A stretch of 63,809 nucleotides of DNA, counting the filler, from Collodictyon triciliatum (lineage: Eukaryota): the NCBI GenBank assembly GCA_043381765.1. It is 8 parts of 8 records of this genome, joined end to end, with 100 filler letters (N's around TTAATTAATTAA, not from the genome) between each part and the next. Parts side by side here need not be neighbours in the genome. Positions count along the whole stretch, not along the records: positions 40,799 to 49,235 come from JBHJMP010003431.1; 7 more parts are not named here. The stretch is one strand, 5' to 3'. Under the pieces are notes generated by a model. It was not told the DNA's origin. It made no database searches and worked only from the letters and a program-made list of their open reading frames with translations. Both the position numbers and the translations under genes were made by a program. Shown one piece after another: positions 39,136-57,671 of this stretch; position 1 is the stretch's first letter; every line of letters begins with the position of its first letter.

Positions 39136-40318
39136 TTTTTCGGCGATGAAGCTTGTATCAGATTCTGTTTATCTTTCGGCGATTCCGATTCTACCATTCT
39201 GGAGCACAAGTTGTTAACTATTGCAATAATCCTGGGTGGGCCTCGCAAAAGTTGCATATTCATTATTATTCAGCACTGCAAAAGAAAAAAGTTTCTATTA
39301 GATGAATCCTTATTCCAAAGTCTATGCAATCGATACCGCCTTAATGCGATGTACGATTTTGCGTCCGCTCTTACGACACTTTCCATGCCCATTATGTTTT
39401 CCGCTTTCTTATTTCTTTTTTCTTTTTTCTCTTCTCTTTTTCTTTTTCTTTTTCTTTTTCTTTTTCTTTTTCTTTTTCTTTTTCTTTTTCTTTTTCTTTT
39501 TCTTTTTCTTTTTCGTTTTTCTTTTTTCTTTTTTCTTTTTTCTTTTTTCTCTTTTCTTTTTTCTTTTTTCTTTTTTCTCTTCTCTTTTTCTTTTTCTTTT
39601 TCTTTTTCTTTTTCTTTTTCGTTTTCTTTTTCGTTTTCTTTTTTCTCTTCTCTTTTTCGTTTTCTTTTTTCTCTTCTCTTTTTCTTTTTCTTTTTCTTCT
39701 TCGTTTTCTTTTTTCTCTTCTCTTTTTCTTTTTCGTTTTCTTTTTCGTTTTCTTTTTTCTCTTCTCTTTTTCTTTTTCGTTTTCTTTTTTCTCTTCTCTT
39801 TTTCGTTTTCGTTTTCTTTTTTCTTTTCCGCTTTCTTTTTTCTTTTTCTATTTTCTTTTTTCCTTTTTTTCCTTTTTTTCCTTTTTTTTTTCTTTTTCGT
39901 TTTCTTTTCTTTTCCTTTCTTTTTTTTGCTGTGTTTGTCATAATGTCAATATAAAATTTTCGAAAAGCATAAATCTTGCAACCTCTTCTGCCCTAATCAT
40001 AGCTCTATCTGCTATAATATCTGAAATATAGCGGAATATGATCAAAAAAAGTTTCTTGTGATCATCACTGATCATCAGCAAGATGAAATCTTGGCAAACC
40101 AGGCAGGACGACAGCCAGAAGGACTTTGTTGTGGAAGAGCGAAGGCTTGAAAGTCCACAGAATGGAGCTGCGTATTAGGCGCATGAGCACGGGACAACAA
40201 GCTTCTTTTCATTCCTGTTGAGATCCTGGGGTTGCAGCGCACGAAACGATCGCAAATTGGAAAAAAGAAAATAAAAAAAAAACCTCACAGTTCGTAGTCA
40301 GCACCCAGTGGTTTGTCG

Positions 40319-40431
40319 ATGGCAGAGCCGAATCCCCAGGAAATCATCCAGAAGTTCCAGTCGCTCCGCAGCGAGGTTCAAACGCTGAGCCAGAAAATCG
40401 CCGAGCTGGACTCTGAGCGGACTGAGCACAG
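40319..40431 (+). CDS. PFDN2: Prefoldin subunit 2, first exon only (3'-truncated)
   Basis: MAEPNPQEIIQKFQSLRSEVQTLSQKIAELDSERTEH|GTACGC matches the PFDN2 N-terminal helix (F..LR.E...LA.K.AELE....EH). Confidence 0.85.
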
Positions 40432-40698
40432 GTACGCAACAAATCAAGTGAAAAAAACCTGAATAATCCCTTTTTTTCCTTTTCTCTTTTTTCTCTTTTT
40501 TCTCTTTTTTCTCTTTTTTCTCTTTTTTCTCTTTTTTATCTTTTTTATCTTTTTTATCTTTTTTATCTTTTTTATCTTTTTTCTCTTTTTTCTCTTTTTT
40601 ATCTTTTTTATCTTTTTTATCTTTTTTATCTTTTTTATCTTTTTTATCTTTTTTATCTTTTTTATCTTTTTTATCTTTTTTATCTTTTTTATCTTTTT

Positions 40699-40798
40699 NN
40701 NNNNNNNNNNNNNNNNNNNNNNNNNNNNNNNNNNNNNNNNNNTTAATTAATTAANNNNNNNNNNNNNNNNNNNNNNNNNNNNNNNNNNNNNNNNNNNN
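40699..40798. other. Artificial contig linker
   Basis: N44-TTAATTAATTAA-N44. Confidence 0.98.
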
Positions 40799-41081: not shown

Positions 41082-43392
41082 TTGCTGTTATTTGCTGCTT
41101 GCTTTTTTCATAGTCTTCGCTCAAGGCTTGCAGTTGTTTCCTTCCATCCTCAATCTTGGCCTCGTTGTCAATGTCCTTCTGCTTGAATGCCTTGTAACAG
41201 TATACTCAGATTTGGTTTGATACCTCCCGTCCGCGCGGTTATGCACAACTCCGCATTACCGCGCAAACAACTGAATAATATAATGTAATAAAATGGAGAG
41301 AAAGAAAGAGGGAATGTTATTGGAGCAGAGGGAAAAAAAGTGGCAAATTCAAAACTGAGTGCGGCGGAGTTACTTTGATATCTTTGTTTGCGTTTTCTAA
41401 ATCCTCTTTGATTTTTGAAAGCTCCTTTGCTTTCTCCGTCAATAATACAGATTGTTTTGTATAGGCTTCGCTTATGTGTTTACTCTGTTTTGGAGGAATG
41501 TGAAACGTTTGCATGCATTGTTGTCCGTCAAGGAATGAATAAATCATTTAAACATGTGGTATTGCGAAGCGGCCTCTCTGTTTGCATGGCACATGCGGCA
41601 TCTCTCTCTTTTTTTTTTCTTTCTATTTTAAACTTGAGAAAATAACAAAGAGAAATAGTTGTATGTGATTAACCTCCTCAGCGAACTCGACAAGCTTGTA
41701 TTCATACTCTTTGACTTGCTCTCGAAGTTTTGATACCTCAGAAGACTTCTCCTGTTTCCATACGCAAAGTGCAATTATTAAAAAAAAAAAAAAAAGGACG
41801 ATGTTTTCTACCTTTGTGAACTTTGTCAGTCAACAATAAGGCAGGACTATCGAACAATAAAGAGAAAAAAAGTATCTACAGAAGCCGGCCAAAAAGAAGA
41901 AACCTTGTAGGAACGCTTTTGGGAGTCGTAGTCAGATTTTAATACAGTCATGGCCTGCAATCCATACATTTGTTAGAAATTCAAACCAAAAAGCTAAAGC
42001 ATGAACCGCATGGAGTACACAAATGGCACCTCTTTCGTTGTCTCCAACTGGTTCTGCAAATCTTCTGTCAAGTCAATCTGAGCTTCCAGCTGCCTCTTCA
42101 ACTCTCTGTGGGATTCCTCCTTAACAAACAAAAGAAAACGAAATCAAAAAGAAGCCAAAAAGAAGCCAAAAAGAAGCCAAAAAGAAGCCAAAAAGAAACC
42201 AAAAAGAAACCAAAAAGAAACCAAATAGAAACCAAAAGGAAACCAAAAAGAAACCAAAAAGAAACCAAAAGGAAACCAAAAAGAAACCAAAAAGAAACCA
42301 TAACAAAAAGAAAACAAAAAGAAAACGATAACAAAAAAACCAAAAGAAACCAAAAGAAACCAAAAGAAACCAAAAGAAACCAAACGAAATCAAAAAGAAA
42401 CCAAAAAGAAACCAAAAGAAACCAAAAATAAACCAAAAAGAAACCAAAAAGAAACCAAAAAGAAACCAAAAAGAAACCAAAAAGAAACCAAAAAGAAACC
42501 AAAAAGAAACCAAAAGAAAAGAAACCAAAAAGAAACCAAAAAGAAAACAAAAGAAAACGATAACAAAAAGAAAACAAAAAGAAAACAAAAAGAAAACAAA
42601 AAGAAAACAAAAAGAAAACGAAACCAAAAAGAAACCAAAAAGAAACCAAAAAGAAAACAAAAGAAAACGATAACAAAAAGAAAACAAAAAGAAACGAAAG
42701 AGCTACACGCACGAAGCAAACATACTACAATATCGCAGATATAAACTCTGTCTTACATAACACGTTCAAGTTGCAAAAAGAAAAGAAAAGAAAAAAGAAA
42801 AAAGAAAAAAGAAAAAAGAAAAAAGAAAAAAGAAAAAAGGAAAGAAAAAAAGGAAAGAAAAATAAAAGCAGGAGTGTGAAAATTAAAATTAATCACTGTT
42901 TCCTTGGAGTTACGCTTCATCTGGATAATACTATCAGATTGGTCTTCCAAGAGCTTGTCTTTTACTTGTAACTCCTATATAATGCGAATATATCAAGATA
43001 CATTTATCTCATGTGCGCTGAATTATTAGCTTAAATATGTTAATAAGGACAAAGGCATTAAATATATAATTACTAGGCGTAATTCTCCAATAATTCGAAC
43101 GAGTTCTTGATTTTCAGAGTTGGATTCCATCAACTTTTTTGTCACTTCATCCCTCTCTCGGCAGATTTCGGCTTTCTAAGGTTTAATATTAAGGAAATTC
43201 TCATCTTGTCAATTAATAAATTAATTTTAATAATTTTACAATATTATTTTAAGAAAGAAAATGAGTATCTCACGTAGCGAATGAGGTCGTCAATTTGCTG
43301 TTGGCTATTCGAAGATTTTTCTTCTAGCTGCCTCGTTTTCTCAGCAAGACGAGTCTGCATTAAGGTGAGTGCATTTAAGACTGAGCATGCTA

Positions 43393-43489
<97 letters not shown>

Positions 43490-46400
43490 GATTCTGATGA
43501 AAATAATAAACCTTTGATATTTCAAGCTCAGCCTCCAAGAATTTTACTTCATGGTCTTTAGAGACGTGAGCATTATTTTCTTCTTGTAATTCTGCCACTT
43601 GCTTCTGTGCCATGAATAGATGAAAGTTATATGATCTGAATATCCACCAATCTATCTGTGCATTTAGAAGTTCGTGGAGGGTGGTGTGCACGAGCTGGAA
43701 GAATAGTTACTTTGAATATTTCCTTCTGTTTATCGAAATCCTCCAAGAGTTTCTTGTTCTGCTTCTTGAGCTATATAAAAAAACAAATCTATATTATTGG
43801 GTTGTTTTGAGACTATCGATTAATTAAAGGTCATCGTTACATTCTTATTTGATAGTGTAGATTGGAAATGAAATAGCTTGGTGTTACGTCAGAAACAGCT
43901 ATGGCGAGTTCGTCAGCTAAAGACCTTGCCCTGGACTCCTTCGTTCGTGAAGATTCCAACTCCTTGATTTGCGTAATGCGTTTTTTTTTTTTTGACCATA
44001 AACAACGCCATTCATTATTTGTCAGTTTAGATATTATGATAAGTAATTGTACAACTTTAAATTAATGGAAGATGCAACCAAAATAGTCCTAATGAACAGC
44101 TCATTAATTCATTCTTCAGTTGTTGTTTTTTAAAATATATATCACTATTACTATTAAAAAATAAAATGTACTTTATGAATATTGGCAAGTTCAGCATTGA
44201 GCTTATCGTTGGCTTCTTTAGTGGAATAAATTCGCATGATATCATCTATGAAATTGATTGTAGGCCTCGTATTTTAAAAAAAAGTAATATCATTACTACA
44301 TGCAGTTCATCAGGGTAATTAACAGCAATTGTACTTCTGTGCTCTAACCTTTCGACTTTCTCTTAAATTCATTTTCCAACTCTCGAAATGCATCTTCAAG
44401 TTGAATGTACCGTTCTAACATATGTCTGTAGTGGCATATATACATGTAACATGAAGCTTTAACATTTCCGTGTCAAATAACATCAATCTGTCAAAGAATA
44501 GTATTTTAGATATGAATGAAGGTATGTAAAAAGTACCTTTCAGCCAGGCCTTTCTCTCTTTGTACCACAGTTTCATGTTGCCTGAGCAAAGCAGATATTT
44601 CTTCTGCATGTTTCCTGATTCCACCAAAAAAAATTGACACAGTATTTTCTTACTCATTTATTTATTTTGCTTCTTATTTGGCTCATATGACTCAAGGCAT
44701 AGCCCGATTTATGCTCAGAAATGCATGATAAAGTGAGAATATCATACGCTGATAAGAGGGTTATCTCTCTTCTCCTTTCCTCCTCTCGATGTGCCATAGT
44801 AGCATGGATGTCCCGTAGCTGGGTTTGAAGCTGATCGTTGGCGTTTTTGAGCAAAATATTATGCTGCTCGGTCTATACAAATAAAGATTAGATTCTCGCG
44901 ACTTCGCCAAGGTAAACGCTAATGGAATAGGGGGTTATGTCTACTTTTAGGAGTCAAATTTAAAAGTGTCCTGACCGATTGAATTTTTTCTTGTAGCTGG
45001 GATGATTTTTTTATTTCTAGAAGATAATCATGCTGGGTGGAAGATAGCTTTTCTTGTAATGACTATAGGTGATATTGCGTGAAATAGAGAAATTAGTCAT
45101 GCCTCAATATAAACTTTTCTTGCTAAATAATGGGAAAATGGCCTTTCACCATTTCGACTAATATTAAAGATACAAGGAGCTGTATCATGATTATCTACAA
45201 CTGTGTTTTAATTGAAATGTACGTTGCAAATCGTTTTACCATCACTATTATCACTTATTTTTATTTTATTTTTTTTTAAAAAAAAAGGGGATGGGTTAAT
45301 GAAAAATCATACTGTTAGATCAGTTGTTGCTTGCTTGGCCCGTGAAACCATATCGTGCGTCGATAGAGCTGTAGCTTCTTGCAAAGATCGAATAGTTTCT
45401 TGAAGGTCAATGACCTCTTGTTGCCTGAAAGACAACGTGGATGTAAGGTCTACCACACCCGCCAAGTAGAGGATATGAATTAAAAAAAAAGTGACCATAA
45501 CTTAGCCAGACCTTTTAGCAAACTCAGCTTCCATTCGAGCTGCATCGATGGCAACTTCGTGTTGCAGATTCTCGTATTGTGAGCGCCAGGCATCTGCATG
45601 ATTCTCCAACTACGAGTTTGTGGGAAGCTTTATCAATCAAAGTGGAAATGCGTGGTAAAAGTTTGGAGAAATTAAACTTGCTTAACGTATTGGGAATGAA
45701 GCAAACACCGAGCATTCATTTGACATTACAAACCTAAAAATATCGACAAAATGTTTGGTGGCTATATACTCAGATGTAGATAATATAATCACCTGTTGCA
45801 TTTCTGCGTTAAGTTCATCCAAGATTGGTGTTATTGTGTCAACCATGATTCCCTTGGTATCCAAAAGTGGGGTCGCCTGCATAGCTTTTTCGACAACCAG
45901 ATTTCGCCTCCTGGACACAAATATAGTACGTTGTAAGGCTTACACATCAGCAAATCTTTCCTTTTACCAAGAATCCAGCAGTATAATGACCAGAGGTTCA
46001 AAAACAAAAACAAAATACTATTATTCGAATTAATATCCTATAAAAGCAGAGTCGGTATAAACTCACACTAGAGCTTGGTTACTTTGGGCTATGCTCAACT
46101 CGGTGAGCGAGGACGCGTCGCTACGACATCAAAGTGATAAGGTGTACATATTTATAAGGAAAAAATAACATGTCGAATAAAGACAAAAGCTTATAATAAT
46201 AAGCCAGAGTATACCTCCCCTCCATAAAAGTGAGCTTATCACTTGAAGTTGTTATATAAAATGATTATTTGTCATCGTGAAGTCTGAATGAGACAACCTA
46301 CCGAAATTTTTTCATCGGTTTTTCAGGTGATCTGTTTTGAGATGGCTTCTGTGGGTAGTCCGAATATTGTTTCTGCTTAGGCGATCTGTGTCCAATCTGG

Positions 46401-46769: not shown

Positions 46770-46823
<54 letters not shown>

Positions 46824-48998
46824 TTACTTTCAAAAAAAATTAACTAATTTATTGTACGGTAAATGAAAAAAAATTACCATTGCAGAACTTCAAATTTGAC
46901 CAAGGATATAAAAAAAGATACGTTTTTAGAGTAATGCCTGATGAAAGTGATAGGGATTAAATAACTTATGCCACCCAAAAACACTGTTGATTAGGGTTTA
47001 GCTACCTTTTTAACTTTAGAACCATCCAGCTTCAGAGGGGCTCTGGCTTGCGTTTGTTCAAAATGATTTCTGTATAAAATTGGCTTTATTGGTTCCACTC
47101 TAAGTATAATTTCTCATTTCCAATTACAAGAAATAGAAAATAAATAGTGCTGATAAGCAAGAAATCATTCTTTACTCACGGATTAGACAGACACTGAAGG
47201 AAGAAGGTAAATACATAAGATAAATATCTTCAATATGAATTATAGTTACATCATCTTCGATATTCTATGCTCCAAACTGTCTATGCGAGCTTCGCGCATA
47301 TGATTTGAAGCTGCGCTGTGTCGTCGTAAATCCTCCGAATCTTCATAGAAAGATGGCTCAGGCACACGCACCTGATTCGGACTAGGTTTGGAATTCAGTG
47401 CGGGTGAGAGTGAATGTGAAGGATGATTAATAGATGGGGTATATTGCTGGGACGGTCCTTGAGTAACCTTTGTGAAATTTGCATTAATATCAGCTGTTTA
47501 TCTTAAAATAGCAAATAAATCAGATATGTGATTAAAACGCTGTTCAATACTATTCGAGTTGGTGTTTCATGGTATATTATTTAAGCCAACAAAAAATATA
47601 TCATGACTATAAACACAAATCAGTTAAGTTGCAGATTCAAGAATGATATATAAAAGACTTACATGGGTCTTTGGGTGTGGATATGCCTCGGATTTAGTTG
47701 ATGTAGAGATTTGAGGAGAGTGATGAGCTTGGTAAAAATGAGATGGAATGTGGACTTGAGATTTCGGTAAAATTGTCTCTGATGTTGGTGGTTCGCTGCA
47801 AATTGTAGAGTTTGCAAGTAGGCCAGGTCAATATATATTTCCGTGTCTGGAAAATGGAAGGAAATCTCAAATGTCTCATGCTTTGCCAGAATATTGGCGA
47901 GAGCTTGTTTACCTTTTGTCCGATAATTCCAATTGGGAGGCAATGGTATCTTGAACAGGCTCGGGTGAGATTGTGAAGGTTTTATATTTTTGTATGAATT
48001 CAAGTACATTGATTGATGGACTAGGTAAAACAAAAACAAAAACAAAAACAAAAACAAAAACAAAAACAAAAACAAAAACAAAAACAAAAACAAAAACAAA
48101 AACAAAAACAAAAACAAAAACAAAAACAAAAATAAAAGCAAAAAACGAAGCAAAACAAAACAAAAGAAAATTCAAATTGTCTTTCTACTTTCTATTTTTA
48201 ATCCACGAATGTATGAAAATTTCCAAAGAAAGGATATTGAGATATTTGACAAATTCTTGAATGGCCGAGTTGACAGTAGCTGACTCTTGATTAAAGAAAA
48301 AGGAGAAAATATAATGTCAGGCTTTAAAGTATTCTCAAATTTTTGCATAACTTTCAAAAATACAAAAATTGAAAATAATAACGCTTTTAAAAGAGAAATA
48401 AATCAGTAATGGTAATGAACAATTATATGATGATAATAGCACATAGTAAACTTCTGGTAGACAAACCCGATTTCAAAGCTCCATGGCGGTCTCGGCAGTC
48501 TAGATATATCAAGGATGGAAGTGTCGCATAAACGACTGACCTGTACTGGCGAGCTTTGCATATAGGATTTGAATGAGCAGTACTTTTTGTCTCATTCCCT
48601 TCACGTTCGAATATAATCTCTTCAAGGAACTATTTCGTGAAATATCGCGTAAGCTTGATCAAAATATTTAACACCGTTTTGTAAAGAATGCATTTCGTTG
48701 TCAGAGTATAAAGTATTCTAATACTTCAACAGTCTAAAAATTTTCTTTGAGAGTATGAAGAGCAAACTTGCACTTTTTAGGAAATAATCTATCGTTAAGA
48801 AAATAAAACCTTGAAGAGTGTCACATGGATGATTTCATCAATATTAGTGATAGTGTTTCCCTTGAGATCGATGCTTCTCAGGGGGTGGTTTGGAACCAGG
48901 CCGAGTGGGCGGAACCCAGACAAGCTTGATATTAGGTTATATGACAAGTTTATCTTGCGAAGTGAAACCAGGCGATCCAGACCAGTTATATTTTTAAT
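41082..48998 (-). CDS. LRRCC1: LRR and coiled-coil centriolar protein LRRCC1/CLERC (VFL1-like); 5'-truncated, 3' end uncertain
   Basis: GLDRLVSLRKINLSYNLISSLSGFRPLG..LRSIDLKGN..|..NPMCKARQYRSVVYATLPSLIYLDC (LRR + LRRcap), RIDSLEHRISK, and a long coiled coil including LQVKDKLLEDQSDSIIQMK. Confidence 0.85.
42125..42700. repeat. (AAAAAGAAACC)n-type degenerate minisatellite in an LRRCC1 intron
   Basis: Directly visible. Confidence 0.9.
47965..48237 (-). other. Candidate U12-type AT-AC intron in LRRCC1 (273 nt)
   Basis: 5' site A|ATATCCTTTC, branch-like ACCTTCAC followed by AATCTCAC|CC; removal gives in-frame EFVKYL-T-EPVQDT. Confidence 0.75.
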
Positions 48999-49235: not shown

Positions 49236-49335
49236 NNNNNNNNNNNNNNNNNNNNNNNNNNNNNNNNNNNNNNNNNNNNTTAATTAATTAANNNNNNNNN
49301 NNNNNNNNNNNNNNNNNNNNNNNNNNNNNNNNNNN
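49236..49335. other. Artificial contig linker
   Basis: N44-TTAATTAATTAA-N44. Confidence 0.98.
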
Positions 49336-51580
49336 TTCTGCTCCACGTGAAGCCGCTTTTTGTATGTCTTCTACACGTTGCTCCTAGAGAGTGAGGATTG
49401 AGCGTCTTCCAAGGGTCTTGCAGCTTGTGCCTGATTGTCCAGCCGACAAAAGGTTTGTCATTGCGTGTCGAGGACCCAGACCACTCGGTGCTGGCATCCA
49501 TAAGAGCGTTGAAGTCTCCACAGATGATGATACGTTTCGCAATCTCCATATCCTTAGAGATAAGCTCATACTCGTGTATTCTAGTATTTGAGCCTGCTGT
49601 TTGGAGTGACATGTATGTCGTCATTATACGAGTGTCAGCTCCATCGATTTGTATATCGAGACTTACGCAACGGCCAGGAATAATCTCTCTGAAGCGAGGA
49701 TTGAGTTTGGCTATCCATTTCTTGCATAAAAACGCTACACCTGCATGTCTATGTTGATTATCGTCACAGGACTACATTTGTGGACCTTTCCATATTTCAT
49801 TATTGGTTAGATTGTCAGGGCTGAGCCATGTTTCTTGGAGGCAAATGATATCTGCGTGAGAGAAAAGAGCAGTGTCTAGGGCCTCTTTTCTTTTTTGGGG
49901 TCGTTAATCCCCTAACGTCCCACGACAGAACGTTAAAACGCATTAATAATCTATTAGCTTTTGGAGGCCGTAGCCCCAAGTGATTGGCCCTCTCTGCTGG
50001 AGCTGGGTTGCTCAGAGTGGGATGGTATACTCGATTTGTCCTTCATTTGGCCGGTGTTATGATTGCTCGCGGTTCGGCCAGGATTTGCCGTATGGTCTTG
50101 GGCTTTTGACTGCACCCTCTTTTGTAGCTGGCGTGTTGGGAGATGCACTCTGTCGGTCACTAGTAACCATCAGTTCCAATTTTCTCCCTCATCCACGCGG
50201 TAGGCAGGGCCAACCATGTTTCCACTTTCATTTTGATATGCTTTCTGGCTCGCTATATTCGGTGGTGTACTTGACTGATTCATTCTCTTTTCATCTGGCG
50301 AGGCTTTATCTTCGACGGTTTCGGTCTTTTTTGGTGCGCCAGTGTTTGCAGGATGAGTAACCGGTGTTTTATATTCGTCTACGTTTCTTTTTCTTGCATT
50401 GGAAGCCGTTTCTCGCTGGGGAGTCGCAAGAGTTTCGACAGCAGGTCTGCTCCCATAAACAGTGCTTGAGGAGTAGTTTGTCGATCCCGAAGCTTTGATG
50501 TGCTCACTTTCTTCTTCAGTAGACCATTCTATGATGACGACAGGTTGGATGGACTGTTATTCTTGCAATCCCGAGTTTGGGACGTCGCTTATGGATTGCG
50601 CAGTACCTGCTGAAGAAAGAGTCTCTTGAGTGGTTCCAGGAGCCATGCCCTCTAAGGAGGCAGGCGGGTGTGGTTTGCTGGGTGCCATTATGCTGTTTCC
50701 CGATTCTGTTACCGAGTTGGCTTGGGCTTCCCTTTCTTCGGCGTTCTATTCATGGTTTAAAGGAGAGCTTGGTGAGATATCATCGGCTTGAGGAGGTTGG
50801 TAATCTTGTAGACTAGTGATGTTTCCTCCACTTCCTTGGAGCCATTCCACTATTTATACTACTGCTTTTTCCGTGTTCATTGGCGAACTTGATGCACTTT
50901 CAGACAAACCGCCTGGTGGTTCGTTCATCATTTCGATATCCATTTCTTGATTTTGGGGCCGTCCCTGAACCTTTGTCTTGATTGAGACTTCGAGCACTTC
51001 ATCCACGGATGTCTTGTCACGATTTCTCCCTCTGGCATTAGAGGACGACGCGTGTTGCCTTTGGCCTTGTTTGTGGGCTCTGGGCTTGTTTTGCACAGAC
51101 GATTCCTGCACGGTTGGCCAGTCTTTAGCGCTGAAGTCGNNNNNNNNNNTTTTTTTTTTTTTTGTGGTTTGTGGTTTGACCTTGTGTGTCATACCCTTCT
51201 TTGTTGGGGAGAGTTGATGGGATGTCAGGCTCTTTGAGGGCGCATATCTTCACGCGACAGCGTCTACCATGAATAACGACAAAGGTTGGTTTTTTTCCCC
51301 ATTTTTTCCTGTTCTTTGTCAAATGTAACGAGTGCATCATTCGTGCATATTCCTCCAGGCTTTGTCCAGTTGACTTTGATTGGGGTGAAGTATTCACTGA
51401 AGGCTTTAAAAATATTAGTCCAGCTGACCCCCAGCGGTATGTTAGACAGGTGCGCAACCTTTGTGACAGTTTTTGGCTTGGAAAGGAAATGTAATCGTTG
51501 CTGAGAAGAAACGGGTCCGATTCTTATTGGTTGGTCGCCAGAGTCCATTCGAAATTCCGCACGTTTTTCCCCCGTTAAAG
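49336..51580 (-). mobile_element. Decayed non-LTR retrotransposon (L1/Tx1-like): ORF1 plus the APE endonuclease of ORF2; RT cut off by the contig end
   Basis: ORF2 starts at 49943 (MRFNVLSWDVRGL), then after a frameshift IICLQETW..WKGPQM*S..AGVAFL..PGRCVSL..IIICGDFNA..LQDPWK..TWSR, with an in-frame TAG at 49772-49774. The disrupted upstream ORF1 has an RRM-like segment. No introns. Confidence 0.9.
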
Positions 51581-52401: not shown

Positions 52402-55400
52402 TTAAGCTAATGCTCTCTGTTTCCACTCAGTTGCTTTTTCAGTGTCCTTCTTAACATTCCATCCATTTTCATAGCATTCAGCCATTATTTGAGCCTGGAA
52501 CTTTGTGAACTTACCCTGTTTACAATGGGCAACAAAATCTGTATCAAAGGAAGCAGCACCAATTGAAAGCAACAGGGATTTGTTGAATGGACTCAATCCT
52601 GTGACACTTCTAATTTGAATGTTCCCACCTTCCAAATATCTTGGGGTGATAATCTGGACTGTCTCTGCATCCTGGATTCTGTTAGTGTCCGTCATGTTCA
52701 TCGCTTCTGTTGTTTCGTTGCAAATTGCGATGATTCTGTCAGGAGCTTCTTCTTCGATGAGGAATTTTGCTTCGGCGTAAGTAGCTACCCGTTTTTGTAA
52801 ATGATGCAGTTTGTTTTCTAAAGCTATGTCCCAAATATATACGGTTCTATCTTTACTTCCAGAAACCAGCCAATATTCGCCATTCGGTCCTTGAATACTG
52901 CAAACACTATTCACATACTCTACATGACCTTCTAATTTTTTAATTTGGTTTCCTGTGGCTACATCCCAAATACATATTGTTTTATCACCACTTCCAGAAG
53001 CCAACCAATTTTCACCATTCGGTCCTTGAATGCTGCAGACTATTTTGACATAGTCTGTGTGTCCTTCTAATGTTTTGATTAAGTTTCCTGTGGCCACATC
53101 CCAAATACGTATGGTTATGTCATCACTTCCAGTAGCCAACCAATTTTCACCATTTGGTCCTTGGATACTGCAAACACTGGTGACCCAATTTGTATGGCCC
53201 TTAAGTAATTTGATTTGATTTCCTGTGGTTAAATCCCAAATACGTACAGTATTATCGCCACTCGTAGACGCTAACCAGTTTTCACCATTCGGTCCTTGAA
53301 TACAGCAAACGCTTAGTACAAAATATGTGTGTCCTTCTAATATTTTAGTCAGGTTTCCAGAAGCAATATCCCAAATGCATATCATGTTATCATCGCTTCC
53401 TGAAGCCAACCAGTTTTCACCATTCGGTCCTTGAATACTGCATATACTTCTGACATTACTTGTGTGCCCTTCTAGTCTTTTGACTTGGTTTCCAGAGGCA
53501 ATATCCCAAATACGTAGTGATTTGTCATCACCCCCAGAAGCTATCCAATTTTCGCCGTTCGGTCCTTGAATGCTGCAAATACATCTGACATTACTTGTGT
53601 GCCCTTCTAGTCTTTTGACTTGGTTTCCAGAGGCAATATCCCAAATACGCAGTGATTTGTCATCACCCCCAGAAGCTATCCAATTTTCGCCGTTCGGTCC
53701 CTGAACACTGCAAACACTTCTGATAGATTCCGTATGACCATCTAATTTACCATAAGGAATTCCGAATTTTACATAGTTCATATTTGCATTATCAAAAACA
53801 CAATCACCAAGCATCGAATTCGTGAAATCAACGCCATCCAAGTTGGCGCCAATGAAGTCCGCACCATCAAGGATTGAATTACTGAGATTTGCATTTGGAA
53901 TTTTAATGTTTGATAGATCCATTCCAGCAAACGAAACATTCATGAAATTCAAAAGTGTGATTGCATCGGATGCAACCTTTGATTTGCTTTCGTCATTCTT
54001 TGACATGCAGACAATCCTAAATAATGATGCAACGATTTGCTCACGATTCCATTCTTCATCCACCTTTGAATGGAGCAAAGTTTCCTGGATGAATTTCCTG
54101 ATTCTTGATAAATCGGCAGGCTCTTTGTTGATTCCGATTTCTTTTGAATGGACGGACACGTATTCACATGAATTCAATGTTCTGGGATGAATCCACCCGA
54201 TTTTATCAGCGAATCTGTCTTTCATCTCAGTCCAGAATTCAACAGCTTCTTTGTGCTGCTTCAGTTCCTTGTAAATCTTGTTGATTTCTTCACAGCTGTT
54301 CCATATTCCAGGATAATCCATAGAATAAAGTTTACTGAATAAATGAATCAGTGTTTTGTAAAGTTGAATGACGGCTTCGTGCTCTTTCTTGTCTTTCATT
54401 AATAAAATAATTTTTTCTACATGATGTGTATCCTTCAGCGACGTGATAGTTTTTGTTTCTTTTCTGATAATTGCTGCCCTCTGGAAGCAATCAGCGCACT
54501 GAGCTGAGCTAATAAAAATTTTAAAATTAAAACTGATTTTTATCATATTTCTGGATAGGTTAAATTTTCGAATATTCTTAAGGAATAAAAAATTACCTTT
54601 GGAACTCAAAATTTATCATCCCAACATTTTCAAGGGAAGTCGCATAATCGACGTGCATTTCTCCTAATGTCCTCTTTCGAATTTCAAGGGTCTTCGTGTA
54701 GGCTTCCAAAGAACCCTTTAATCTGGACAGAATGTGGGGAGTGTGTATAATATTTCTAAATTCACAGGGTCAAACTGAAAAATAAATAGGACTAGTTCGT
54801 TTGAAAAGTGTTACTCTTTCAAGTCATGGCTGATATCTCCAATCGCATCATAGCAGGACACAACATTCGGATGATTTTCTCCAAGGGTGGATGTGAAAAT
54901 ATCCAATGATTGATTCAGTAAATGTAAGGCCTCCGTTTTTCTGTACAATGAGCAATTACTGAATATATTTGAGTAGAAAAAAATATGTAGATTTTGTTTT
55001 TGAAAAAAAAGAAAAAATAACTTTCCGCAGGCCAGCTGAACGTTTGCAATAAACTGAATTGTTGAGGCAACAGATGCGTGATTGGCCCCCAGCGATTTTT
55101 CAAGAATTGATTTCGCTTTTTTGTACTTTTCGACGGATTCTTCAAACCTTAGTTGTTCAGTTAAATACATAATTGTATAAAATAGTAAAATTTTGGATAC
55201 AATGAACAATGAACAATGAACAATGAACAATGAACAATGAACAATGAACAATGAACAATGAACAATGAACAATGAACAATGAACAATGAACAATGAACAA
55301 TGAACGATGAACAATGAACAATGAACAATGAACAATGAACAATGAACAATGAACAATGAACAACCAAGAACTAAAAACAACGAACAATCCAATATTTGAA

Positions 55401-57671
55401 TACAAAATTAATAATTGAGTTATTTTTCAAAAAAAAAATTACTTTCCCTCAGCCAGAGATACATGACCATAGTTCTGATACGACATTGCTACGAAAGGGT
55501 GTTCATCACCAGCTTTCTTTTGGCGGATTTCCATAGCTTTTTTGTATTCAGCCTTGGCCTGCTCAATCCTTGATGCATGTTTTTCAGTATTAATAAAAAA
55601 AAAATATCAAAAATTTGTATAAGAGAAAGGATATGAACGTAAAAGCACGGTAGAAACACCAAAAGATGACCAAAAATTACTTTGACTGCTTCACGTAGAT
55701 GTCTCCGAAGCGGTCGTAAGATTGAGCTACTTGCAAGTCGTTCTCACCCAGCTGTTCAATTCGCAATTGCAACGATTTCTTATATTCTTCAAATGCTTTA
55801 TCAATTCTGTATTGAAATCAAATAAGAATTGATGTTCTGGCTGATTTACCATCGATTACATTCATATAATAGACACTGGTCTTACTTATTCTGTGTCTGA
55901 TATATTATTCCCATCTCTTCATAAATGGTGGAAATATGCTGATAATTATCCCTATTTTTCTCCAGTAAATCCAGGCATTTCTTATAGTGGATCATGGATT
56001 CGGTAAAGCTGTTCAGGTATAGATTTAGAGAATTTTTCCGCAGTAAAACATAATGGTTATTTCATAGCCCCTAATTAAGATTTATTTTATTATATTTACT
56101 TTTGGATATTCTTGTAGACACGACCAAGATTCAAATAGTCAGCAGCTTTCGAATCTACGCATAGATAAATACAAATATTTTAATATAATTTATTTGTTGA
56201 CAATAGGTACATTTGAAACAGTAAGGAATATACCCTCTATTTGATGCTTTACAAGACGCGTATTAAGGATTGATAACAAAAACGAGTTTTCGAATGATTC
56301 CAGGAAAAATCCAACAAGTAATTCTCCCACATTATCCAAGGACTGAAAAAAAAAAAGCCGTATTGACTTATTACTAATAACTTCAACATGCAATCGTTTT
56401 TTTTCTTAAGGAAGTAAATAATTAATGCTCAACTTTTTTAAATTTTTTCATACTTTTGCCAGAGTTCCGTATGCATCTTTATAGTTTGCTGCTCCACTTG
56501 CGTTTATTACCCTCCAGCATGTAAAGAATTCGTAGCGATAGCGACCACCAAGCATGACACTGATTACCTAAGAATATTCGTTAGGATAATGCCAATTGAT
56601 AAACTTATGATGGCTTTCATAATATAAAGAAATTACATGTGTTTGCTTCATGTATTCAACAAGCAAGTCAAGCGAATTGCCATTCAGAAGTTGGTAGCAT
56701 ATCTCGGCAACAAGCTCCTCATCGGCATCAGCAGCCTCAGCGTATTGGCCAAACAGCCATTTTCCGTATTTTTCGTGCGTTTTTTCGATTTCTTGCTTTT
56801 CGGAGAAGTAGAATTTTTTGGTGGTCTCCAAAAGTAGCTGGTGAAAGTACATATATCTATCGATTTGGATTCAGATTGGGATATTGATAAACAATTTTTT
56901 AAAATGGTAATATATAGCCGCCGTGATTGAAAAAGAAATTAATTTTAAAAACCTTCCATTTCGAACAAAAAGTGATTCCATCAGAGTGAAAAAGAAGGAC
57001 TTCCTGTTCGATGATATACGGACAAGTGAGTTTTATGGGAATAATGGATTATGCAAGAAATATTTTTTAGGTGAAATAAAGCTCCACCATTCGGTTAGCT
57101 CGAATCTTGTACCAATCGTATCTTTCATGTACTTGTCCAAATCTCCTTCACTCAAACCGATGCGAGAAACAAAGAGCGCCTTCATTGAAGCGGCAACGTA
57201 CTCTACATCTGAAAATCGCGATGTGGGGATATTACATGATAATCAAAAAAAATCACAAGGTCAAGTATCACTGCCGACTTACCTTCGTTGTCAAACTTCA
57301 ATTGCCAGCGATGGATAATAAGAGTATAAAGCTCGATGACACCATGTGTCGAAAGTAGAATTCCCAATTCTTCATCAAGTTTCTCGTAAACACCGAAAAC
57401 CCTGACTTCATCCAGAATGATCCGAAGATAGAGTGGATGTCCTAAATATAAAATACATAAGTTTATTATTTAATACTGCATGAAAGAATTTTAATCGAAA
57501 CATATATAATGATGCCCCACCAGTATCTTTCAAGTCAGCCAGAATCATCCCAACTTGCTTTTCATTCAAGGATTTGTCATAGCGAAGGAGGAATGATTCG
57601 ACGCTATCCATCACTTCACCTTCAGACAACTTGGTGACAGGAATCGGCTGCAAACCGCCTTTCTCGGCAGA
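52402..57671 (-). CDS. NPHP3/TEP1-like STAND (NACHT-associated helical region) + TPR + pentapeptide repeat + 7xWD40 + Sel1-like protein; 5'-truncated
   Basis: LLRYDKSLNEKQV..TGHPLYLRIILDEVRVFGVYEKL..SRIGLSE..YFHQLL (the P-loop itself is off-contig), kinesin-light-chain-type TPRs (LGENHPNVVSCYDAIG), ASDAITLLN..ANLSNSILDGADF, and seven 45-aa GH..WD repeats. Confidence 0.9.
52828..53748 (-). repeat. Seven tandem 135-bp coding WD40 repeats of high identity
   Basis: The motif QGPNGENW recurs every 135 bp (e.g. GGTCC at 53561 and 53696). Confidence 0.97.
55200..55360. repeat. (AATGAAC)n heptamer, intronic
   Basis: Directly visible. Confidence 0.95.

Follow-up and report, generated by a model that had tools for sequence, protein, structure and literature searches.

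The gene of concern lies on the minus strand of a 63,809-nucleotide stretch of Collodictyon triciliatum DNA, which was analysed as a whole and is called the window below, and, judged by its sequence, it is an LRRCC1/VFL1-type gene. It has the features of that family, SDS22-like leucine-rich repeats (LRRs) with a cap in the N-terminal part and then a long coiled coil, and its exon A is recognised by Pfam LRR_4 (E = 5.7e-09). A transcript-derived relative of 918 amino acids, P0031, gives 12 tblastn matches in colinear order between 49001 and 41892 of the window, beginning in the LRR region and continuing along the coiled coil; for its N-terminal 79 residues tblastn found no match in the window. 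The specific relatives of P0031 bear LRRCC1-like names (those from Babylonia, Crocodylus, Biomphalaria and Argonauta), and the motifs NPxC, YLDFL-type and TPxI are common to the window gene and LRRCC1-like proteins. It is on this architecture and these three motifs that the name LRRCC1, given in an initial annotation of this DNA, can be kept. The LRR exon was also compared by a word-based homology search that allowed longer proteins, and none of 47 candidates scored. The window also holds a 736-aa WD40 reading frame, the matches of which are generic WD40/NACHT proteins of cyanobacteria and fungi, along with one EukProt transcript match at 40% identity.

The exons and splice sites around the intron are given in Table 1, in which a slash marks a splice junction. 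Exon C continues the frame of exon B, and what it encodes can be aligned with the YLDFL-type motif in nine orthologs; when a profile of the motif alone was run against 17 peptides from the interval between exons B and E, the exon C peptide came second, with a non-significant E of 0.5. Exon D has a GC content of 0.455 (measured on 47964-47910) and a codon score of +0.35 bits per codon, and neither it nor exon E has significant homology. With the junction 48238^47964, exons B to F form an open frame of 204 residues. For comparison of splice sites, 14 donors and 10 acceptors of the gene were chosen by eye from candidates, and are provisional; the donors match CAG/GTAAGT at four to eight of nine positions, i.e., they are weak as a rule.

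Table 1. Features of the LRRCC1/VFL1-type gene around the proposed AT-AC intron
Feature	Position	Strand	Remark
Exon A (leucine-rich repeats)	48810..48998	-	Pfam LRR_4; tblastn P0031 residues 80-145, 56% identity
Exon A donor AAG/GTTTTA, provisional		-	End placed by gap-free colinearity with P0031
Exon B (LRR cap, NPIC motif)	48467..48629	-	tblastn P0031 residues 145-196, 48% identity; profile of nine orthologs matches at 47-50 bits
Exon B donor CGG/GTTTGT, phase 1 end		-	
Exon C, 48 nt	48238..48285	-	Conserved helix-like motif IQEFVKYL after LRR cap
Outer AT-AC intron, 273 nt, phase 1, proposed U12-type	47965..48237	-	
U12-type 5' splice site ATATCCTTT	48229..48237	-	9/9 against published /RTATCCTTT
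Nested GT-AG pair, 186 nt, TTC/GTGGAT ... CCTAG/T	48021..48206	-	Judged to be a chance or cryptic pair
Second nested in-frame donor AAA/GTAGAA	48183..48188	-	Same acceptor 48021; +35 codons; 4/9 against CAG/GTAAGT
(TTTTTG)n microsatellite, period 6, 19.7 copies	48027..48144	-	Within both introns; Tandem Repeats Finder
Branch-site-like motif AACCTTCAC	47973..47981	-	Putative branch A at 47974
3' terminal AC of outer intron	47965..47966	-	Sole in-frame AC with nearby branch-like motif, at most one mismatch
Exon D, 52 nt	47913..47964	-	Donor AAG/GTAAAC, phase 2 end
Exon E, Ser/Pro/Thr-rich linker	47663..47795	-	Acceptor TTGCAG/C, donor CAT/GTAAGT; boundaries provisional

The motifs ascribed to the outer intron in the initial annotation are all in place on the minus strand, ATATCCTTT at 48237-48229, CCTTCAC at 47979-47973 and the final AC at 47966-47965, and its removal keeps the frame as had been claimed, 273 being a multiple of three. 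The 5' site agrees in all nine positions with the consensus /RTATCCTTT (PMC2846911), and it begins exactly where the homology-supported 48-nt exon C ends, at which point there is no GT; the intron has AT-AC terminal dinucleotides instead. It is in phase 1, in keeping with the reported tendency of U12-type introns to avoid phase 0 (PMC7367187). Are there other donors from which the frame could be kept? Those of GT-AG or GC-AG type in the interval are at 48274, 48265, 48250, 48206 and 48188, and they either cut the conserved motif or are those of the nested pairs considered below; the four GT donors among them (all but 48265, which is a GC donor) match CAG/GTAAGT at three or four of nine positions.

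On its own the 9-mer is no more than chance would provide. It occurs three times in the window, where 1.26 occurrences are expected, eight of 100 shuffles reach three, and a neighbouring gene has one copy, at 55634, within a GT-AG intron of the ordinary kind; that it is so common by itself counts against the outer intron being of U12 type. Of the other nine RTATCCTT sites in the window, none combines a position at the end of a coding exon that can be recognised with a consensus branch site. What raises the outer intron above chance is the position of its 5' site at the exon end together with a branch-like motif 9 nt before an in-frame AC. That motif, AACCTTCAC, agrees with TTCCTTRAY (UCCUUAACU) in six of nine positions and with the core CCTTRAC in six of seven, with an A in the branch position, the mismatches being a C in place of R and A-A in place of T-T. 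Both its imperfection and the 9 nt from the putative branch A to the last intron base, less than the optimum of 11-13 nt for U12-type introns (PMC3584512), count against the U12-type reading. In the 3 kb that follow the 5' site there is no exact CCTTRAY, and natural minor introns that deviate from the consensus by at least one base have been reported (PMC8848931). A branch-like motif of this quality, with at most one mismatch, accompanies 89 of the 5883 AC sites that the window contains (1.5%). From the 5' site as far as the donor of exon D there are nine AC ends, four of them in frame, and just one of those four qualifies. No U run is next to that AC, the T-rich repeat stopping 62 nt upstream, and the pyrimidine fraction over -20..-3 is 0.61, compared with 0.44-0.83 for the ten provisional U2-type acceptors of the gene. 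U12-type introns have no distinct polypyrimidine tract before their 3' site. Taken together, 5' site, exon end and branch-like motif make the U12-type reading of the outer intron the best-supported model, as the initial annotation had it, and 48237-47965 is probably a real U12-type intron.

The nested pair is another matter. As had been pointed out, removal from GTGGAT (48206) to CCTAG (48021) takes out the (TTTTTG)n tract and is in frame. The inner intron so defined is 186 nt, again a multiple of three, and the 31 + 56 = 87 nt of the outer intron that are then left read, in frame with the exons on either side, as 29 codons with no stop. Missing from the earlier list was the second donor, AAA/GTAGAA. 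How surprising is such an arrangement? When the interior of the intron was shuffled 2000 times with its dinucleotides kept, 52% of the shuffles had a nested, in-frame, stop-free GT-AG pair, and so had 2516 (52.7%) of 4774 real stretches of 273 nt taken from the window: the pair is not above chance, and the caveat to that effect in the initial annotation was the better reading. The inner donor, there described as weak, matches the consensus at three of nine positions and is the weakest of the 15 compared, below all 14 provisional donors of the gene, though as those donors are weak in general this is not decisive. Counting from the inner acceptor, adenines are at -2 and -6 and the next is at -113, with none between -7 and -112, whereas nine of the ten provisional acceptors have at least 10 adenines in -50..-8. 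Its tract over -20..-3 is 83% pyrimidine, equal to that of the best acceptor of the gene, and the TTTAT at -113, with no AG before the acceptor, could act as a distant branch point.

The 87 nt that the inner removal would retain look intron-like in GC content and codon use. The two pieces have GC contents of 0.26 and 0.29, which is above the 0.20 of the inner intron but below the 0.40-0.455 of the six exon pieces examined. Their codon-use score is -1.98 bits, a value as low as which is found in 1.5% of 815 coding windows; with the LRRCC1 exons out of the training the insert scores -0.17 per codon and 10 LRRCC1 exon pieces -0.02 to +0.45 (three of the 14 coding pieces contained stop codons and were dropped from training). 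A score as high as its own is reached by 18% of 780 stop-free non-coding windows, so that the insert stands between the coding and non-coding classes.

A profile of ortholog proteins points slightly the other way, to read-through. Against the nine-ortholog profile the read-through forms score 50.3 and 50.1 bits and the short form 47.0, a difference of 3.3 bits that is weakened by the long forms including all of exon C and so having more alignment choices. The read-through peptide YLNIL is similar to the YLDFL motif and comes 48 residues after NPxC, a distance that is 47 in nine of 13 orthologs, while for the FVKYL motif of the window it is 45. Upstream of the motif, by eye, the register with FVKYL as the motif aligns better: the I and Q of the window fall on the L and E/Q of orthologs, and FVKYL resembles FVEFL of P0223. 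A PPT motif follows the conserved motif by 17 residues in P0031, the closest relative (by eye), and by 19 in the short form, a match that speaks against the inner pair but is weak. In the 13 motif-bearing orthologs, all of them distant (the best has 56% identity, and that in the most conserved exon), the residues after the motif are polar and of low complexity, and by eye none of the 13 has a hydrophobic segment like the insert. The linker of the window gene is 71 residues, compared with 14-35 in 12 orthologs. Proteins this distant do not settle the splicing form.

Do both spliceosomes act at this one position? A twintron, as defined in PMC3564746, is an intron position with both a U12-type and a U2-type set of splice sites, the two introns being alternatively spliced by different spliceosomes and both sets conserved in related species, and that there is a candidate here was the main claim of the initial annotation. 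It would yield a U12 product lacking the 87 nt and a U2 product longer by 29 or 35 residues, the latter via GT 48206 or 48188 and AG 48021, with the U-rich microsatellite being an unusually long pyrimidine tract served by a distant branch point. Both site sets are there, both products are in frame, the geometry is that of prospero (PMC3291851), and to this may be added the pyrimidine-rich inner tract, the AG-free path from TTTAT to the acceptor, the extra bits of the long forms and the general weakness of donors in the gene. However, it is by dinucleotides and frame only that the two sets share the position, and the U2 sites are weak. About every second comparable sequence is expected to have an in-frame stop-free pair by chance, no donor compared is weaker than the inner one, adenine is missing where a branch point would be sought, the retained pieces resemble intron, the orthologs have nothing like the hydrophobic insert, and the linker is already long before any residues are added to it. 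On these grounds the evidence does not lift a twintron above chance, the double-intron idea is unsupported, and we consider such a twintron unlikely. The more specific notion of a twintron outside insects and vertebrates, in which (TTTTTG)n is the pyrimidine tract and the branch point is >110 nt away, is quite improbable; if it were true, repeat length could shift the balance between two spliceosomes and two isoforms.

Alternatively, the real intron could be the inner GT-AG alone (48206 or 48188 to 48021), as in an organism without a minor spliceosome, with ATATCCTTT coding for Asn-Ile-Leu-Ser and U12-like by chance. The 9-mer is expected about 1.3 times per window anyway, YLNIL fits the conserved motif and its spacing (48 versus 47), the profile gives its extra bits to this form too, and the branch motif, besides its mismatches, sits near the 3' end. 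Yet the inner donor, the missing branch adenine and the intron-like GC content and codon use of what would be exon all tell against it, for the residues before the motif the other register gives the better alignment, and the branch-like motif before an in-frame AC would go unexplained, so that this possibility too is given little weight. A further one is that the junction is of U2 type but elsewhere, TTT/GTCAAA (48250) or ACT/GTCAAC (48274) being joined to the acceptor CACCCGAG/ (47960), or that the exon model is wrong and exons D and E are not real. Either pairing keeps the frame without a stop codon, a C/T-rich stretch precedes the acceptor at 47960, exons D and E are without significant homology, and the linker is far longer than in orthologs. 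On the other hand, both donors match the consensus at just three of nine positions, their use would lose part or all of the conserved motif (46.1 and 44.7 bits, versus 47.0), and exons D and E have good splice sites with a frame that is consistent from exon B to exon F; we doubt that either version is correct.

The reading that we favour, with modest confidence, is that 48237-47965 is a single U12-type AT-AC intron of this LRRCC1/VFL1-type gene and is removed whole. From the motifs, frames, exon support and chance rates, all of which were observed directly, we infer the spliceosome that acts and that removal is in one piece. The steps of U12 splicing being those of established knowledge, U11 and later U6atac would pair with ATATCCTTT, the imperfect branch site AACCTTCAC would be paired by U12, and the first suitable AC a few bases downstream of it would be the 3' site, with the junction of exons C and D then joining the split codon A/CC in phase 1. 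The (TTTTTG)n microsatellite would be passive intron content, and the nested GT-AG pair a product of chance, or at most a rarely used cryptic pair, with its 29-codon insert not a designed isoform. A search of the whole window with Rfam gave no match at the gathering score, and thus no snRNA gene was found there. If the outer intron is of U12 type, it is a further minor intron, here in a gene of centrioles and cilia, which is not surprising, and the organism retains the minor spliceosome; in the literature searched no paper links LRRCC1 with minor introns or minor splicing. This would be of use for annotation, as gene finders that allow GT-AG only would mis-model its junction. A proven twintron would be more interesting, as few are documented and they bear on the conversion of U12-type to U2-type introns.

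How does the locus compare with systems that are better known? The twintron of Drosophila prospero (PMC3291851, PMC3564746) consists of a U12-type AT-AC intron with a U2-type intron nested in it, and its longer product has 29 additional amino acids. The initial annotation was correct about the likeness to it (PMC3291851): the nested geometry, the frame-keeping removals and even the number of extra residues are the same, the equality at 29 being taken as coincidence. But for prospero both mRNAs are documented, their use varies with the stage of development, and among insects the site sets are conserved, while in LRRCC1 the inner sites are at chance level and known from DNA sequence alone. Vertebrate twintrons, found in 18 human genes (Table 1 of PMC3564746, where LRRCC1 is not among them), likewise have U12- and U2-type site sets at one intron position; they differ in being defined by annotated alternative transcripts and conservation. 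Conversion of U12-type to U2-type introns by activation of a nearby cryptic U2-type site has also been discussed (PMC3584512, PMC3291851), and the weak GT 31 nt downstream of the U12 5' site and the AG behind a U-rich tract are reminiscent of such sites, though here there is no sign of activation and about half of comparable sequences have the arrangement by chance.

The closest resemblance is to U12-type AT-AC introns at large, as characterised in PMC2846911, PMC3584512 and PMC7367187. The differences are the C for R and A-A for T-T in the branch-like motif, the 9 nt rather than 11-13 to the 3' end, and that use of the minor spliceosome is here a prediction. Shared with them are the AT-AC termini, identity with /RTATCCTTT, a branch-like motif near the 3' end, a phase other than 0, and the occurrence of a single such intron among the GT-AG introns of the same gene.

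The initial annotation had named the gene containing the outer intron LRRCC1, and homology upholds the name. A full HMMER search with its leucine-rich-repeat exon as query gave 361 proteins at E <= 0.001, and 19 of the 150 listed were picked for tblastn, mainly proteins matched in one or two segments close to the N terminus. One of the 19, P0031, a relative of 918 aa from a EukProt Trinity transcript, aligns colinearly with the window in 12 pieces between 49001 and 41892, leucine-rich repeats through coiled-coil region. Its specific relatives, from Babylonia, Crocodylus, Biomphalaria and Argonauta, carry the name LRRCC1-like, and exon A is matched by Pfam LRR_4. An excerpt of bioRxiv 10.1101/2021.07.21.453218 gives LRRCC1 as the animal ortholog of the Chlamydomonas centriole protein Vfl1p. 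Residues 1-79 of P0031, its N-terminal leucine-rich repeats, have no tblastn counterpart anywhere in the window; the gene's 5′ exons may be hidden by masking or may lie past the genes next to it.

Provisional exon model, outer intron with its internal features, and neighbouring features
Feature	Position	Strand	Remarks
Exon A	48998-48810	-	leucine-rich repeats
Exon B	48629-48467	-	phase 1 at end
Exon C	48285-48238	-	48 nt
Outer intron	48237-47965	-	273 nt; AT-AC, phase 1
Inner pair	48206-48021	-	186 nt; GTGGAT to CCTAG
Second in-frame donor for inner acceptor	48188	-	AAA|GTAGAA
Hexamer microsatellite	48027-48144		19.7 copies (Tandem Repeats Finder); inside inner pair
CCTTCAC	47979-47973	-	within outer intron
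Exon D	47964-47913	-	52 nt
Exon E	47795-47663	-	Ser/Pro/Thr-rich linker
Exon F	from 47467	-	start provisional
Endonuclease/exonuclease/phosphatase fragment	49334-49771	-	non-LTR retrotransposon kind; Pfam E = 4.5e-05, below curated cut-off
WD40 frame	52405-54612	-	uninterrupted, 736 aa; seven repeats, Pfam WD40 E = 2.5e-63
TPR_12-type exons	54811-55817	-	short GT-AG introns between; 55442-55606, Pfam E = 1.4e-06

As for the neighbourhood, the endonuclease fragment has N runs on its flanks (N content of the window, 1090) and lies just upstream of exon A. The WD40 gene, unusual in being intron-less beside intron-rich neighbours, is closest to cyanobacterial and fungal NACHT/NB-ARC-WD40 proteins and to the EukProt transcript P0269 (query coverage 91%, identity 40%), and may be one gene with the tetratricopeptide exons upstream of it. 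Long microsatellites and low-complexity tracts are many, on both strands, in the introns of the LRRCC1-type gene (39345-40750, 42098-42750, 43394-43543 and 46770-46830).

Is the outer intron of U12 type? The motifs ascribed to it, the ATATCCTTT donor, CCTTCAC and the terminal AC, are all in place. ATATCCTTT directly abuts the end of exon C, where there is no GT, and is identical to the published U12-type 5′ consensus, /RTATCCTTT, as given in an excerpt of PMC2846911. Aligned by MAFFT with 9 orthologs (P0031, named LRRCC1-like proteins and similar full-length matches), the exon C peptide IQEFVKYL coincides with the conserved YLDFL-type motif that follows the leucine-rich-repeat cap, and with AT-AC as the C-D junction exons B to F are open for 204 residues. 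Full retention of the intron brings a stop codon after 17 codons. Among U12-type introns phase 0 is disfavoured (PMC7367187). From the 5′ site to the donor of exon D there are nine AC ends, four of them in frame, and among these four 47965 alone has a close branch-like 7-mer (at most one mismatch): CCTTCAC, whose A is 9 nt from the last intron base. Of 5883 AC sites in the window, 89 (1.5%) are preceded at 8-15 nt by such a motif, and 3 by an exact one. The candidate branch agrees with TTCCTTRAY at just 6 of 9 positions and its distance is under the optimum of 11-13 nt (PMC3584512); no exact CCTTRAY occurs in the 3 kb downstream of the 5′ site. Natural minor introns with non-consensus branch sites do exist (PMC8848931). 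Due to the homology-supported exon end, the frame and the branch-like motif, a U12-type outer intron is the best model, falling short of proof.

The 9-mer alone is not rare, with 3 in the window against 1.26 expected, and a natural control shows that by itself it is no marker of a U12 site: a perfect ATATCCTTT at 55626-55634 (minus strand) sits within one of the short GT-AG introns of the tetratricopeptide gene, where the upstream exon stops at AAG|GTAATT, followed by a stop codon. A second ATATCCTT on the coding strand of the LRRCC1-type gene, at 46902-46909 (minus), has no recognisable exon end there and no CCTTRAY downstream, and is taken as a chance match in an intron. RTATCCTT is present 10 times in the window where 4.9 are expected, a count reached in 1 of 100 shuffles.

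What of the GT-AG pair nested within? Its layout is as had been described: with the repeat enclosed and the pair alone excised, 31 + 56 = 87 nt are kept, and these continue the flanking reading frame for 29 codons without a stop. The 3′ part of the outer intron has one usable AG and two GTs precede the first stop codon, the donor at 48188 being absent from the earlier description. The inner pair is not above chance. When the interior of the outer intron was dinucleotide-shuffled 2000 times, 52% of the products had a nested, in-frame, stop-free GT-AG; among 4774 real stretches of 273 nt from the window, 2516 (52.7%) had one, with 164 of 333 on the gene's own strand; at least 60 nt would be retained in 39.5% of stretches. 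The donor, TTC|GTGGAT, agrees with CAG|GTAAGT at 3 of 9 positions, where the gene's 14 provisional donors, including GTTTTA, GTTTGT and GTCTGG, score 4-8, a hint that U2-type 5′ splice sites are loosely defined in this organism; since those other donors are weak too, this is a mild argument only. As the repeat precedes the inner acceptor, adenines there are at -2, -6 and next only at -113, so that a very distant branch point would be needed; at 9 of the gene's 10 provisional acceptors at least 10 adenines lie in -50 to -8, and at the tenth there is a single one, at -25. GC is 0.26 and 0.29 in the retained pieces (six exon pieces 0.40-0.455, inner intron 0.20). A codon-use log-odds score, for which 1126 codons and 3538 intron bases served as training set, 3 of 14 coding pieces being excluded for stop codons, gives the 87-nt insert -1.98 bits; 1.5% of 815 coding windows (mean +13.5, sd 6.7) score that low and 18% of 780 stop-free non-coding ones (mean -30.5, sd 21.5) that high.

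The reading towards which we lean is an ordinary U12-type AT-AC intron removed whole. As U12 splicing is generally understood, the minor spliceosome would remove all 273 nt, with U11 and U6atac at ATATCCTTT and U12 at AACCTTCAC, the nearby AC being picked as 3′ site and the microsatellite passive content. Since the intron has an internal GT, and an AG behind a U-rich tract, low-level cryptic U2 splicing is conceivable; sites of this kind have been considered as a starting point for U12-to-U2 conversion (PMC3584512; PMC3291851, in excerpt). Of the proposed U12/U2 twintron, the outer half stands as best model; the inner half is at chance level, and a true twintron is improbable. Use of the inner pair by U2 splicing only is an equally doubtful prospect, and for a different junction, or a mistaken exon model, the likelihood is similarly slight.

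Orthologs say little on short versus long form, and not all one way; the available relatives are all distant (at most 56% identity, best exon). None of 13 motif-bearing orthologs has a hydrophobic segment like the insert, all going on polar and low-complexity. A TPxI motif, which P0031 is without, comes 14-35 residues after the YLDFL-type motif in 12 of them; in the window, the short form has a linker of 71 residues to TPSIN and the long form one of 100. With the 9-ortholog profile, read-through forms score 50.3 and 50.1 bits, the AT-AC form 47.0, and two other GT-AG alternatives 46.1 and 44.7. The higher read-through score arises as YLNIL resembles the conserved motif too. The long forms include exon C in full, which gives them more ways to align. 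YLNIL is 48 residues after NPxC and FVKYL 45, with 47 in 9 of 13 orthologs; by eye the FVKYL register is better, both for upstream residues and for the closest sequences (FVEFL in the database match P0223, YAEYL in P0031). Even so, the difference of 3.3 bits speaks against the U12-only reading and leaves its rivals in play.

In PMC3564746 a twintron is defined by alternative splicing of both introns through different spliceosomes. LRRCC1 is not included among the 18 human twintron genes of its Table 1, and the literature searched gave no paper joining LRRCC1 with 'minor intron' or 'minor spliceosome'; in the only match with 'U12' the term was an institute code. Orthologs may have an annotated U12 intron outside the searched literature. 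The likeness to the prospero twintron is borne out by what the excerpt of PMC3291851 gives: the geometry is equal, with a U2-type intron lying inside a U12-type one and 29 more residues in the longer product, and that the figure is 29 in both is taken as coincidence.
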